Positions 12,835 to 20,071 of a stretch of 64,000 nt of DNA are shown piece by piece; position 1 is the first letter of the stretch; each line of letters begins with the position of its first letter. The stretch spans positions 4,923 to 68,922 of the forward strand of contig JBBAEU010000003.1 of assembly GCA_041655765.1 (NCBI GenBank), read 5' to 3'. The notes below the pieces were generated by a model. It saw only the letters and a program-made list of their open reading frames with translations, did no database searches and was not told the DNA's origin. This DNA is from Brumimicrobium sp. GTDB taxonomy: Bacteria > Bacteroidota > Bacteroidia > Flavobacteriales_D > Crocinitomicaceae. The position numbers and the translations under genes are program-made.

Positions 12835-13956
12835 TCAATTATTTTTAAGAACATCTATCAACGCTTCAGAGAACTCACTAATAGTATATTCCCTTTGCAA
12901 TTTTTCATACGTTTGAACATTATGTAGCATCTCTTCATACTTCAATTTATAGTTTCCACTTTCTATGTCTTTTGCCAACTCATTTAATTCTGAGACATAA
13001 AAGTTTTCTGACTTTAACCATTGATAAGTAGAGCTTTTTTTATTTAAATAGATTTTACACCCCCCTAATAAAGCAGTAAAAATATTCCCCAATGCATGTT
13101 GACGATAACTATTGATCACTAATGCTGAAGCACTGTTATAAATAGTTTCAAACTCATCAGCTGGTAAAAAGCGTTCGATTACTTCTGTATTTGAAAGCTC
13201 ATTTGCTTTTTCTTTTACTTCATCTTCATAAAAAAGAACATTACCATAGCTAAAGAACAGTTTAAAGCTAATTCCATCAGGAATATTAGCTTTACTAAGT
13301 TCATCGAAAACATCTAAATGGTTGTTCCAAAAATGACGACTATTACCTAAAATTATTGTATTATCTTTTTTATGAAATTCAAAATTCACCTGACGATTTA
13401 AAGCGAGTTGTATGTACTTTGGCAGATAAAAGTCTTCCTTAAGCGCATCATATTCAAATTTGTTAAATAACAAAATAGCATCAATCCTTTTATAAACCTT
13501 TGTTAGTTCATCTTTATTATATTTATATCCTACTTTAAAGACCTTTCTTTTTAAAAGTTTTAAATAACGAAGAGGAGAAAATTTATTATTGGATATATTA
13601 TAGATGCTGTAAAATGTCTTTTTGCTAACATATTTAGGAATGTTTTTGGAATACAATTCCCCACCAAATAAACGTAGAAATATTTTTATGTTATCCGGAA
13701 GAGCTTGAAGTAATGTGATGTTTGTTTGATTTAATTCGTTTATTACTAAACCATCATAATTTGAAGCTTCTTCAATTATTCTTTTTGTAGTATTTACAAT
13801 TTCATACTCAAAAGGAAGGGTTTTTAATTTACTTTCAATTTTATTTGATTTTTCTCCAAAATAAATAATTTTATTAATGAAAGCCTTATTTTGATACCTT
13901 AGAGTTCCTTCTATAAATACAGGGTTCGAATGAATGTGGAGAAGCTTATAAGTCAT
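12835..13956 (-). CDS. WecF-like (GT56) 4-amino-6-deoxyhexose transferase
   Basis: IILGNSRHFWNNHLDVF, LFFSYG, INSYRQHALGNIFTALLGGCKIYL resemble WecF motifs (GNS...N.H, RQQ..G). Confidence 0.7.
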   Translation of the reverse strand: MTYKLLHIHSNPVFIEGTLRYQNKAFINKIIYFGEKSNKIESKLKTLPFEYEIVNTTKRIIEEASNYDGLVINELNQTNITLLQALPDNIKIFLRLFGGELYSKNIPKYVSKKTFYSIYNISNNKFSPLRYLKLLKRKVFKVGYKYNKDELTKVYKRIDAILLFNKFEYDALKEDFYLPKYIQLALNRQVNFEFHKKDNTIILGNSRHFWNNHLDVFDELSKANIPDGISFKLFFSYGNVLFYEDEVKEKANELSNTEVIERFLPADEFETIYNSASALVINSYRQHALGNIFTALLGGCKIYLNKKSSTYQWLKSENFYVSELNELAKDIESGNYKLKYEEMLHNVQTYEKLQREYTISEFSEALIDVLKNN

Positions 13957-14116
13957 ATTTAATATTAAAAGAGTTCATGGTAAATATAATTGGAGCATGT
14001 TGGTAAGTACTAACTCTACACGAAACTATGGGATTAGGTATTTCCTCAAGAACATGATTAGGATATTCCTCAACAGGTACTTTTTGATGTTTTTCAATAA
14101 ACTGTTCTAAATTCAT
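13946..14116 (-). pseudogene. Truncated GT2 glycosyltransferase (N-terminal fragment)
   Basis: Manual translation (56 aa, below the ORF-track cutoff) MNLEQFIEKHQKVPVEEYPNHVLEEIPNPIVSCRVSTYQHAP matches the GT2 start P.VSV...TYQH..YI, then unrelated sequence and stop. Confidence 0.7.
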
Positions 14117-14130
14117 TTTTTCTTTTTACC

Positions 14131-17700: not shown

Positions 17701-18924
17701 TTAAAGAGTATTTAATAATAGATTTTTTCCGCTTGGATCTTTAACTTTTAATGATTTATATATTACCGCTACTTTTATTTTTAATTCTTCCTCTGTTAAA
17801 GCAGAAATTAATAAGCCTACTGGTCGGTCAGAACTATCTATGTTATTCTTAATTATGCTTCCTTGCCTTTTATAAATAAAGTATTCGATTATTACTCCAT
17901 CTTCTTTAAGGGTGTCTAACCCTTCATATTCTTTTATTACTCCAGGTTTACAATAGATATAAATCATTTCTAACAAACAGCTGGATGGGTTTATTTTTAA
18001 TTCAACTGTTTCATTATGTAATTGCTTTATGGAAGCGTCTAGAAGATCAAAATCAGTTCCTTGTTTGATAAAAGAATATTTTGAACCTCCACCAAGTCTA
18101 GCACTGCATTCTATAACATACACTTCTTCATTAGTCATAATTAATTGTATAAGTAGCGGACTATTATTTAATGAAAAAGAAGTTGCGATTTTTTGTGCAA
18201 TTGAGTTTATTAAATCAGTTTGTTCCTTGCTTAATCCGACTGGATATTGACTTCCTATAATGGTAAAACCTAATTCTGCAGAACCGGTTTTTATGCTTTT
18301 TGAAATAAACAGAACATTTGCCTTCCCATTAATTACTATACAGTCAACAGAAATTTCGTCTCCTTCAATAAACTCTTCAATAATAATCTCCTTAGTTAAA
18401 CTGTAATTAATTGTATTCTCAAAATTGCTTATTAAATCTTTTTTGTGCCATATTTTAACTACTCCTTTTGAGCTGCTAGAATCTACAGGTTTTATAACAA
18501 GGGGAAATTTCAACTTTGAGATATCCATTACATCAACCGAATTCGTTATTATGTATTGAGCTGATGGAATATCATTGTCGAAAAAAACTTTTTTCATTTT
18601 TTTCTTATTTGTTATTTCTAAAGCCTTTTCATATGAAATGTGTTTGGGTAAATTCAGTTTGGATGAAACGTAGATTGCCGTAAGCAATGCTGATTCAATA
18701 GATGTAGCAACTACAAGGTCAACTTTATTCTCCTGTGCTACTTTAAGTACTAACTCTTTGTCCGTTGTACTTTCTCTAATATGTTTATCTGCATATTCTT
18801 TTGCTGGAGGATTTTCCAAATAGTCCAATAAAATAGTTTGATATCCTCTTAGTTTTAAAGATTTAATAAGTTGGATGTGGTCGGAGGTTCCACCTAAAAC
18901 GAGCGCTTTTCTTTTGTTAGTCAT
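17701..18924 (-). CDS. ATP-grasp ligase
   Basis: LVLGG, ITNKKKMK, LVIKPVDSSSSKGV, IIEEFIEG.EISVD, IECSARLGG. Confidence 0.9.
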   Translation of the reverse strand: MTNKRKALVLGGTSDHIQLIKSLKLRGYQTILLDYLENPPAKEYADKHIRESTTDKELVLKVAQENKVDLVVATSIESALLTAIYVSSKLNLPKHISYEKALEITNKKKMKKVFFDNDIPSAQYIITNSVDVMDISKLKFPLVIKPVDSSSSKGVVKIWHKKDLISNFENTINYSLTKEIIIEEFIEGDEISVDCIVINGKANVLFISKSIKTGSAELGFTIIGSQYPVGLSKEQTDLINSIAQKIATSFSLNNSPLLIQLIMTNEEVYVIECSARLGGGSKYSFIKQGTDFDLLDASIKQLHNETVELKINPSSCLLEMIYIYCKPGVIKEYEGLDTLKEDGVIIEYFIYKRQGSIIKNNIDSSDRPVGLLISALTEEELKIKVAVIYKSLKVKDPSGKNLLLNTL

Positions 18925-18985
18925 TTGTGTGTTTTACTTAAGTAATTTGAGATAATTTTATGTGATAAGAGCTAGTGATTAGTTT

Positions 18986-20071
18986 TCAATAATTCTTTCT
19001 TATCTCTAAAATCGATAAACATATTTTTTCTACTTCACCTTCAGATAAATCATAATAAAAAGGCAAGCACAACACTCTTTTTGCAACCTCATCTGTAATG
19101 GGCATTGTTGTACTTTCAAGATAGGGAAGTCCGTTCGCCAAGCTTGGATAAAAATACCTTCTCGTTTGGATGTTGTTTTCATCCAAAACTTGAACTAATT
19201 CTAATAGTTGTTTTTCAGAATTCAACAAGATAGGATAATACGCAAAGTTATTTGTGGCATCTTTATGCCAAACTTGTACTTGGTGCTTAAAATCTTTTAA
19301 TCCCATTGCGTACCATTGGGCAACTTGTTTTCGCTTATCATGTATTTTATCAATATACTTTAAGTTTGTCAATCCCATTGCCGCATGAAACTCTGAGTTT
19401 TTTCCATTGATACCCAATTCAGCAAAAGTACTAAAACCAGAAATTCCAAAATTGCGGATATACTTTAGTTTTTGATTTAATGCTTCATTATTACAGATTA
19501 CTAAACCGCCCTCTATCGAATGGTATAGCTTTGTTGCATGTAAACTGCATGTACTGATATCACCATATTCAAAAATAGATTTCCCATGTACTTGCACACC
19601 GAAAGCGTGTGCTCCATCGTAAATCACCTTTAAATGATGTTTTTTTGCAATTTCCGCTATCGCCACCACATCACATGGATTTCCATAAACGTGCGTTGCC
19701 AAAATAGCCGATGTTTTTTCTGTAATAGCCGCTTCGATTTTTTCAGGATCTATATTCAATGAATCCGCGTCAATATCCACAAACACTGGTTGACATCCTT
19801 CCCAAACAATACTACTGGTTGTTGCCACAAAAGAAAAAGGCGTCGTAATAATTTCTCCTGATAAATTCAAAGCCTTAATCGCCATTTGCAAAGCAATGGT
19901 TCCATTCGTAACAAACAATAAGTTGTCAACTTTAAGATGCTCCATCAACTTCACTTCCAACTCATTTGCTAAAGGTCCCATATTGGTCAGCCAATTGCGC
20001 TTCCAAATACCTTTTAAGTACTCATTATATTCTTCTTCAGGAGGAAGAAAGGGTTTTGTAATAGGAATCAT
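18986..20071 (-). CDS. vioA: DegT/DnrJ/EryC1/StrS aminotransferase, VioA-type (dTDP-4-amino-4,6-dideoxyglucose)
   Basis: IPITKPFLP...IWKRNWLTNMGP, TTPFSFVAT, DGAHAFG, SLHATK (PLP lysine), GINGKNSEFHAAMG. Confidence 0.82.
   Translation of the reverse strand: MIPITKPFLPPEEEYNEYLKGIWKRNWLTNMGPLANELEVKLMEHLKVDNLLFVTNGTIALQMAIKALNLSGEIITTPFSFVATTSSIVWEGCQPVFVDIDADSLNIDPEKIEAAITEKTSAILATHVYGNPCDVVAIAEIAKKHHLKVIYDGAHAFGVQVHGKSIFEYGDISTCSLHATKLYHSIEGGLVICNNEALNQKLKYIRNFGISGFSTFAELGINGKNSEFHAAMGLTNLKYIDKIHDKRKQVAQWYAMGLKDFKHQVQVWHKDATNNFAYYPILLNSEKQLLELVQVLDENNIQTRRYFYPSLANGLPYLESTTMPITDEVAKRVLCLPFYYDLSEGEVEKICLSILEIRKNY

Follow-up and report, generated by a model that had tools for sequence, protein, structure and literature searches.

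Why does a gene for a predicted cobalamin-dependent mutase lie directly downstream of an opine dehydrogenase gene within a bacterial glycan locus, and what could the two enzymes contribute to a surface polysaccharide? The question is raised by a 64,000-nt stretch of DNA from Brumimicrobium sp. (assembly GCA_041655765.1, contig JBBAEU010000003.1, positions 4,923-68,922), referred to as the window; coordinates are those of the window unless a comparison locus is named. The genes concerned form a cassette that reads as follows:

18986..20071, minus strand, DegT-family pyridoxal phosphate (PLP)-dependent sugar aminotransferase, 361 aa (PF01041)
17701..18924, minus strand, ATP-grasp ligase, 407 aa (ATP-grasp_4, ATP-grasp_3)
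17051..17698, minus strand, GNAT N-acetyltransferase, 215 aa (Acetyltransf_1)
15978..17042, minus strand, opine dehydrogenase (OpDH), 354 aa (Octopine_DH)
14131..15975, minus strand, predicted cobalamin-type mutase, 614 aa (DxHxxG loop, fold, paralogues)
12835..13956, minus strand, distant GT56/WecF-like glycosyltransferase, 373 aa (weak match to NF002756)

The tight packing of the ATP-grasp, GNAT, OpDH and B12 genes, noted in a preliminary description of the locus, was reproduced by our open reading frame (ORF) calls, with intergenic gaps of 2 bp (ATP-grasp/GNAT), 8 bp (GNAT/OpDH) and 2 bp (OpDH/614-aa gene); wider gaps separate DegT from the ATP-grasp gene (61 bp) and the 614-aa gene from the WecF-like gene (174 bp). 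The borders given there, 12835 and 20071, are genuine gene ends, and all cassette genes are on the minus strand. From homology and gene order we propose that the cassette decorates an amino sugar: OpDH and the mutase would make a branched opine-type acid, which the ligase would join to a 4-amino-6-deoxyhexose, a proposal whose chances we judge to be about even. The conserved core of the system is the OpDH-mutase pair, a general two-enzyme module recruited by glycan loci and not a glycan-specific invention. To our knowledge, no adenosylcobalamin (AdoCbl)-dependent step is known in the synthesis of polysaccharide substituents.

The product of the fourth gene is by homology a genuine member of the opine dehydrogenases. 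It scored 137 bits against Octopine_DH (PF02317, cut-off 30) and was matched at full length by N-(1-D-carboxyethyl)-L-norvaline dehydrogenase (CENDH) of Arthrobacter sp. 1C, its closest characterised relative (1BG6, residues 3-345; 259.6 bits, E 4e-76, 39% identity). H198, R288 and D293 correspond to the catalytic His202, Arg292 and Asp297 of CENDH, and 50-51 of the 51 aligned proteins (the window OpDH, CENDH and 49 partner OpDHs) retain this triad. The full-length CENDH match and the retained His, Arg and Asp thus bear out the opine dehydrogenase assignment made earlier. In L096 (4536-7783) and L097 (5025-8674), genes for a DcuC-type dicarboxylate transporter and a GntR/FCD regulator adjoin those of the proteins most closely related to CENDH, an arrangement that suggests an opine uptake and catabolism unit.

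The 614-aa protein belongs to a large and strongly conserved family: more than 2,861 database proteins match it, the top 120 with 54% identity or more, and scanning 185,579 species genomes for a pattern yielded 461 confirmed relatives spread across many phyla. An alignment of 28 homologues (A1) contained about 190 invariant columns. Among these is the loop D14-I-H16-T-L-G19, of which D14, H16 and G19 were invariant in the 28 and also in a set of 17 homologues; the DxHxxG loop is the mark of base-off/His-on cobalamin proteins. A second invariant block, G70-F-S72-Y-R-L75, is a candidate SxL motif, and the position of the GG motif reads as an invariant G111-L112. In the predicted domain architecture, a B12-binding domain (aa 1-~135, nt ~15571-15975) precedes a TIM barrel resembling that of GlmE (aa ~200-490), and the C-terminal region is helical/beta. 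In the AlphaFold (AF2) model of the whole protein (pLDDT 86.7, pTM 0.88), a Rossmann-like domain of five strands leads into a barrel of eight, and all of the first nine Foldseek matches were AdoCbl isomerases (glutamate mutase E, lysine 5,6-aminomutase, methylmalonyl-CoA mutase (MCM) and IcmF), the best being glutamate mutase GlmE (1cb7_B, E 2e-11, TMt 0.64). When the N-terminal 150 residues were modelled alone (pLDDT 90.5), the best fold match was the small chain of 2-hydroxyisobutyryl-CoA mutase (4r3u_C, 131 aa, TMt 0.72), followed by a CarH-type B12 domain (8jbs), an MCM chain (2yxb, 139 aa) and the cobalamin domain of MetH; the best E value was only 3.4e-3, with generic flavodoxin and receiver-domain folds close behind.

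A link to known mutase families was provided by a paralogous subfamily of about 560 aa, found by exhaustive profile search (P0156-P0250, alignment A2, with members in L006 (G105) and L095 (C. ultunense)), which carries CxHxxG where the window family has DxHxxG. Alignment A1 and paralogue P0162 were matched by hhalign with a probability of 100% (E 1.7e-54, 33% identity, 495 columns). Among 16 paralogues, 15 matched the B12-binding family PF02310 (best E 1e-10) and six matched MutE, PF06368 (best E 1e-6), P0162 scoring 27.5 bits against the latter (cut-off 26.6), so that the link of the window family to PF06368 is a transitive one, via the paralogues only. Three paralogues are fused to MutL (PF13941), a reactivase type that goes with glutamate mutase, one is fused to a glutathione-synthetase/RimK-type ATP-grasp domain and one carries an OpDH C-terminus in frame. 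Through these fusions the superfamily is independently linked with AdoCbl mutases, carboxylate ligases and OpDH. MutL-like genes also adjoin canonical GlmE genes in L093 and L094, and some paralogues are fused to a peptidase M15-like region. The invariant DxHxxG loop, the AdoCbl-mutase fold, and paralogues that match PF02310 and PF06368 and are fused to MutL together uphold the earlier claim of a B12 protein, and we consider it likely that the 614-aa protein is a cobalamin-dependent isomerase.

Several findings weigh against the proposal as a whole, and those that concern the mutase are best considered together with a rival view, namely that the 614-aa protein is a corrinoid-dependent methyltransferase, a protein that senses or binds B12, or a TIM-barrel enzyme with a Rossmann-like domain that has lost cofactor binding. 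The protein matched no Pfam family at E <= 0.01 and no NCBIfam model; its match to PF02310 (residues 10-43) reached only E 0.082 and 13.2 bits (cut-off 32.1), with similarly weak matches in 18 of the 28 family members (best E 0.0015). Neither the window protein nor any of the 28 A1 members matched PF06368, no PDB sequence was matched by phmmer or by a profile of 28 homologues, and hhalign of A1 against one and against ten GlmE sequences returned only an insignificant 17-column match (E 0.047 with the ten). In the window genome, we found no MutL-type reactivase and no canonical GlmE. The rival further draws on the N-terminal Foldseek search, which gave no match at E <= 0.001 and whose flavodoxin-like fold is generic, on the G111-L112 reading of the canonical GG motif, and on GlmE substrate residues that are not recognisably kept. 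However, the DxHxxG loop is invariant across phyla, all of the top nine fold matches are AdoCbl isomerase barrels, and clear homologues match PF02310 and PF06368, some of them with a MutL fusion. In addition, C30 is the sole invariant cysteine in the 28 homologues and no radical-SAM (S-adenosylmethionine) cysteine motif is present; therefore, the protein is not a radical-SAM enzyme. Taken together, we regard a non-isomerase as very improbable. As to the supply of cofactor and sugar, the window genome contains a PduO-type adenosyltransferase (199 bits), one cobalamin riboswitch (74.5 bits) and, on another contig, RmlB (466 bits).

The system closest to the mutase is glutamate mutase, GlmS/GlmE (EC 5.4.99.1; 1cb7, 6h9e), which combines a small base-off/His-on B12 domain with a TIM barrel, as predicted for the window protein, and has a similar summed size (137 + 483 aa, compared with 614 aa); GlmS carries its DxHxxG motif at the identical residue numbers, D14/H16/G19. 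Unlike GlmS/GlmE, the window protein has both parts in one polypeptide, its partner is an opine dehydrogenase instead of methylaspartase, and its context is a glycan locus instead of glutamate fermentation. A weak collinear alignment to GlmE was obtained via the paralogues (343 columns, E 0.0015, probability 17%); a superfamily hidden Markov model run against 120 GlmE sequences gave nothing significant. The substrate-binding residues of GlmE are Arg66, Arg100, Arg149 and Glu171, a numbering that fits the GlmE alignment at an offset of 2. In the low-confidence alignment the invariant Gln257 stands opposite Arg100 and Ser321 opposite Glu171, which also counts against the proposal; Arg294 lies within 2 residues of Arg149, and Glu482 is opposite Glu330. 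The arginine claw and Glu171 would thus appear not to be kept. Because Gln257 and Ser321 replace Arg100 and Glu171 in this alignment, the substrate is probably one other than free glutamate, and the apparent loss of Glu171, the residue handling free ammonium, would be compatible with an N-substituted glutamate-like substrate. Canonical GlmE occurs alongside the fused family in two of eight Bacillota genomes, and the two are therefore not redundant. The picture drawn from alignment and fold model is of a protein predicted to work like a glutamate-mutase-type isomerase without being glutamate mutase, and the family is a new subfamily of predicted AdoCbl-type mutases in a pathway context not described before.

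The short match between A1 and GlmE falls on a hexapeptide, QPRAG(L/V), that is invariant in the window family (aa 435-440, predicted barrel strand 7) and also in GlmE (aa 64-69, strand 1), where its arginine is one of those that bind the substrate. A circular permutation between the two proteins was considered and rejected: when the alignment was cut at seven inter-strand boundaries, hhalign never extended beyond 17-18 columns.

To see which genes accompany the mutase, the best 80 of the 461 loci from the species genomes were sampled, and 78 of them were classified by tblastn and ORF clustering. In 49 of the 78 loci, and in 35 of the 47 with adequate flank, the gene immediately before the mutase on its upstream side was OpDH, at a median offset of -1079 bp. 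An orthologous ATP-grasp gene was nearby in 18 loci and a DegT gene in 14. By context, 20 loci were of glycan type, 33 contained the OpDH-mutase pair only and 25 the mutase alone (some of these on truncated contigs). The order DegT, ATP-grasp, (GNAT, methyltransferase or nothing), OpDH and 614-aa gene is repeated in unrelated contigs, and the arrangement is therefore not due to chance. In a maximum-likelihood tree of 77 mutases the context labels were strongly clustered, with 12 changes compared to 34.8 in shuffles and none of 200 shuffles as low. The window mutase fell into a clade of 25 with 99% support in the Shimodaira-Hasegawa-like approximate likelihood ratio test (SH-aLRT), mostly from Bacteroidota with scattered other phyla, comprising 15 glycan-type members (ATP-grasp or DegT nearby), seven solo and three pair-only members; a clade of the Planctomycetes-Verrucomicrobia-Chlamydiae (PVC) group and Armatimonadota was pair-only, and a Bacillota clade was pair-only or solo. 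The co-occurrence of the B12 gene with its neighbours predicted in the preliminary description was thus confirmed for OpDH, and for ATP-grasp and DegT only within the window clade. The possibility raised there, that most homologues would occur outside glycan loci or without OpDH, applies by half: the linkage to OpDH holds, whereas 58 of 78 loci have neither ATP-grasp nor DegT and show heterogeneous, non-glycan contexts. That most family members lie outside glycan loci counts against the proposed pathway, and it is the reason why we describe the pair as a general module that glycan loci have recruited.

The mutase gene was missing in 18 other congeneric species, and it was likewise not present in 22 genomes sharing the family or order; the cassette is accessory and horizontally mobile. 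Among 400 genomes of the phylum, only one other had a mutase match, a distant paralogue. One carrier of the cassette is Polaribacter marinus MSW13 (L009).

Outside the glycan contexts no third partner of the pair could be identified: the 150 neighbour proteins of the pair-only loci represented 193 Pfam families with at most three proteins per family (asparagine synthase), and a conserved third partner was rejected for this reason. Likewise, no riboswitch was detected upstream of OpDH or the mutase in 20 pair-only loci at Rfam gathering scores. In L075, from Planctomycetales, two matches to the Na+-sensing nhaA-I riboswitch (5532-5585 and 6375-6428, 48-49 bits) lie 2-3 kb upstream of the pair, which they probably do not control, because a minus-strand gene lies between. 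In L059 (9272-15627), on a PVC-group contig, two mechanosensitive-channel genes flank the mutase and are followed by a P-type cation ATPase, which hints at an osmotic or ionic-stress role of the free product outside glycan contexts.

Evidence on what the pair contributes within a glycan cassette came from a search of 400 Bacteroidota genomes with the window ATP-grasp. Three genomes (G056, G184 and G192) contained orthologue-level ATP-grasps (37-41% identity) and, a few genes upstream, a DegT 56% identical to that of the window; none of them had the mutase. Between or beside the DegT and ATP-grasp genes, all three carried a TIM-barrel C-C bond lyase (PF15617), an MmgE/PrpD protein and a conserved 299-aa protein of no known family, and two of the three also an Ldh_2-family dehydrogenase. 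Ketimine reductases and N-alkyl-amino-acid reductases, functional analogues of an OpDH, belong to the Ldh_2 family. Adenylosuccinate-lyase-family and cyclase-family genes were found downstream in two of the three alternative cassettes, and two weak WecF-like genes in one of the three loci. The alternative cassettes are located as follows:

L125, 3396-7944
L126, 9210-13648
L127, 2419-6801

This second module, a lyase plus a dehydratase-type enzyme, could build and reduce a branched acid, and the alternative cassette probably makes another exotic N-acyl group. Because two non-homologous modules share the position between orthologous DegT and ATP-grasp genes, the exchange argues that the occupant of this slot would supply the carboxylic acid attached by the ligase. 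A PrpD-like gene is also found directly upstream of the OpDH-mutase pair in L030.

The same data bear on a different explanation, in which the pair serves to make or break down a small molecule that stays free (osmolyte, metallophore or catabolic intermediate, for example) and is a passenger in a variable locus, while DegT, ATP-grasp and GNAT by themselves use a standard amino acid to form an aminoacyl or acetyl amino sugar of the usual kind. The 33 of 78 loci with the pair alone and their heterogeneous surroundings (the 193 Pfam families mentioned above) would fit this, as would the nature of individual neighbours (in L059 MscS channels and a P-type ATPase, in L088 alanine dehydrogenase, in L087 genes of amino-acid catabolism, and also asparagine synthase) and the fact that L-amino-acid ligases normally use proteinogenic amino acids. 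It accords less well with the tree, in which 15 of the 25 window-clade members are near ATP-grasp or DegT and context labels are so strongly clustered that none of 500 shuffles reaches the observed value, with the 2-8 bp spacing that places OpDH and mutase in one run with ATP-grasp and GNAT, with the other acid-making module that holds the DegT-ATP-grasp slot in genomes that do not have the mutase, and with the paralogue that is physically fused to an ATP-grasp. We therefore rate a free product of the window pair as unlikely, and return to the decoration of an amino sugar.

The remaining cassette enzymes were assigned at family level. DegT scored 307 bits against PF01041 (DegT_DnrJ_EryC1) and has the PLP Schiff-base Lys181 in the motif SLHATK. 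Its best equivalog-type model was DesI (TIGR04427, 259 bits compared with a cut-off of 650) and its best PDB match also DesI (2po3, E 4e-52), with the 3-aminotransferase QdtB close behind. In sister cassettes, orthologues with 42-69% identity lie directly upstream of the ATP-grasp gene. The protein is thus a probable NDP-4-keto-6-deoxyhexose 4-aminotransferase (NDP, nucleoside diphosphate) of the DesI/VioA-like type. The ATP-grasp protein matched ATP-grasp_4 (55.9 bits) and ATP-grasp_3 (54.7 bits), and LAL_C2 below the cut-off (20.8 bits, cut-off 29.4); its PDB matches were 4dim (E 5e-22) and the L-amino-acid ligases 4wd3 (RizA, E 5e-18) and 3vot (BL00235, E 1e-16). It belongs to the same fold family as these ligases, with the second, C-terminal LAL domain weakly recognised. 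L-amino-acid ligases form an amide via an acyl phosphate; the known ones join two free amino acids, whereas the acceptor proposed here is a nucleotide-linked amino sugar. The GNAT protein scored 33.1 bits against Acetyltransf_1 (cut-off 20.7). Across the sister loci its slot was occupied by a GNAT in four, by a SAM-dependent methyltransferase in four and by nothing in others, so that the GNAT assigned to the pathway earlier is encoded in the window but is an optional accessory in general. The last gene matched the WecF model NF002756 of NCBIfam at E 2e-16 (59.8 bits, cut-off 457) and Pfam GT56 (PF07429) at E 0.015 (14.8 bits, cut-off 25). Weak homologues of it (24-30% identity) were found in L125, a cassette that does not contain the mutase, and in 11 sister loci a GT2 gene instead lies directly downstream of the mutase. 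The GT56-like protein is a candidate for the transferase of the decorated 4-acylamino-6-deoxyhexose.

The pathway that we propose would begin with DegT aminating an NDP-4-keto-6-deoxyhexose to an NDP-4-amino-4,6-dideoxyhexose, probably dTDP-Qui4N, given the RmlB encoded elsewhere in the genome. OpDH and the mutase, which would be translationally coupled, would act successively on common metabolites, and either could come first: OpDH would reductively condense an amino acid with a 2-oxo acid to an N-carboxyalkyl (opine-type) polycarboxylate, and the mutase, binding AdoCbl base-off/His-on via D14 and H16, would introduce a methyl branch by a glutamate-mutase-like radical 1,2 carbon shift. ATP-grasp would then activate a carboxylate of the acid as the acyl phosphate and join it to the 4-amino group of the sugar, GNAT would acetylate the remaining amine (which sister cassettes would methylate or leave free), and the GT56-like transferase, other glycosyltransferases and ABC exporters would build and export the glycan. 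As a more tentative extension, which we think rather doubtful at its full breadth, OpDH and the B12 mutase may constitute an unrecognised and widespread route to a new class of methyl-branched opine-type polycarboxylate amino acids, via radical rearrangement of an N-carboxyalkyl-glutamate-like substrate, with the products amide-linked to a 4-amino-6-deoxyhexose in Bacteroidota and some other lineages; glycan structure, antigenicity and phage-receptor properties would then depend on how much B12 is available, a vitamin that the bacterium has to import.

A precedent for opine substituents on glycans, as already noted in the preliminary description, exists in Providencia alcalifaciens O35, in whose O-antigen alanopine is amide-linked to Qui4N (PMC10609480, its ref. 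48). This combination, N-(1-carboxyethyl)alanine on 4-amino-4,6-dideoxyglucose, is the product class expected of DegT, OpDH and an amide ligase; no rearrangement of the carbon skeleton is required for alanopine, and no B12 enzyme is implied. A description of the genes behind the alanopine substituent was not found in the open literature. The pyrrolysine enzymes PylB, PylC and PylD offer a second parallel, by analogy only: there, too, a radical mutase yields a methyl-branched amino acid, which an ATP-grasp enzyme couples to an amine before a dehydrogenase completes the product, and PylC is a weak match to the window ATP-grasp (E 1e-15). They differ from the window cassette in that PylB is a radical-SAM enzyme instead of a B12 enzyme, PylD does not belong to the opine dehydrogenases and the acceptor is lysine instead of a sugar. 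Literature searches combining opine dehydrogenase with cobalamin, B12, mutase, ATP-grasp or polysaccharide retrieved no relevant paper. What is newly seen here is the bridge to Pfam and MutL families via the paralogues, the clade structure of the genomic contexts and the alternative module in the ligase slot.

The precedents also allow other connectivities, in which the ATP-grasp enzyme couples a uronic-acid carboxyl with the unusual amino acid through the amino group of the latter, or couples two amino acids, and GNAT N-acetylates the sugar made by DegT. In O-antigens of Providencia and Proteus, uronic acids bear amino acids in amide linkage, among them N-epsilon-(1-carboxyethyl)lysine (PMC10609480), the ATP-grasp protein resembles dipeptide-forming ligases and the GNAT gene adjoins that of the ATP-grasp. 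Yet GNAT is absent from most sister cassettes or replaced by a methyltransferase, which would leave the amino sugar unacylated, DegT is directly upstream of ATP-grasp in at least 10 loci, and neither Pfam nor NCBIfam identified a uronic-acid-forming dehydrogenase within the cassette. Such connectivities appear improbable to us, and attachment of the acid to the 4-amino group is preferred.

The findings against this preferred pathway that do not concern the mutase are of three kinds. The names vioA and WecF used in the preliminary description amount to family-level guesses, as DegT scored below every equivalog cut-off and the last gene product likewise, being a distant GT56 relative at most. 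Near relatives of CENDH, from Arthrobacter and Fictibacillus, have genes for DcuC and GntR but none for a mutase in their vicinity, and CENDH biochemistry was for this reason rejected as an anchor for the OpDH-mutase pair. Finally, no glycan structure is known from any carrier of the cassette.

If the proposed pathway is true, a new reaction, probably on a new substrate class, would join the short list of B12 carbon-skeleton mutases, and a conserved family of thousands of sequences that has no Pfam model would gain a function. B12 is a traded commodity in marine and gut communities, and most Bacteroidota cannot make it; surface-glycan structure in these communities would then be tied to its availability. 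The modular architecture of DegT, acid-making module and ATP-grasp offers a general means of reading exotic N-acyl groups on amino sugars from sequence. The family lends itself to testing, as the enzymes are soluble, the cofactors commercial and at least one carrier is in culture.

The previously noted setting of the cassette within a glycan locus, which extends from ~3.6 to 22 kb of the window, was substantiated by an ABC exporter, GT1 and GT4 transferases, a Wzm permease and Wzx around it. These include:

20131..21939, minus strand, ABC exporter with fused permease and ATPase, HepA/MsbA/PglK-like (Pfam ABC_tran 109 bits, and ABC_membrane)
11409-12614, minus strand, GT1-family transferase (Glycos_transf_1 80 bits)
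10067-11395, minus strand, GT4 transferase (Glyco_transf_4 45.7 bits)
9115-9951, minus strand, ABC-2 Wzm-type permease (ABC2_membrane 72 bits; NCBIfam galactan Wzm/RfbD 65.9 bits)

The ABC exporter, the first gene of the co-oriented block, scored 330 (HepA), 295 (MsbA) and 260 bits (PglK) in NCBIfam, all below the equivalog cut-offs, and a homologue with 40% identity occupies the same position in L008; it is likely a flippase or exporter for a lipid-linked glycan. Promoter and terminator counts in the block were not above those of shuffled sequence, and an Rfam scan of the window gave no match. Within the glycan block, a 451-aa polytopic membrane protein that matches no Pfam family (7574-8929, minus strand) could be a polymerase or a ligase. 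An ORF of 105 aa with a GIY-YIG nuclease domain (21981-22298, plus strand) adjoins the ABC exporter at the block's upstream edge and may mark mobility at the boundary of the locus or be a remnant of it. Outside the glycan locus are a gene for a PKD protein secreted by the type IX secretion system and a sulfate-activation cluster (26187-31075, minus strand) coding for a CysN-like GTPase, CysD, adenosine 5'-phosphosulfate (APS) kinase, a DUF2061 membrane protein, a short-chain dehydrogenase/reductase (SDR) epimerase/dehydratase and 3'-phosphoadenosine 5'-phosphosulfate (PAPS) reductase; PAPS from this cluster, which adjoins the glycan locus, could be used in glycan sulfation. Elsewhere in the window, an ORF of 2,365 aa is located at 50039-57136 on the minus strand.

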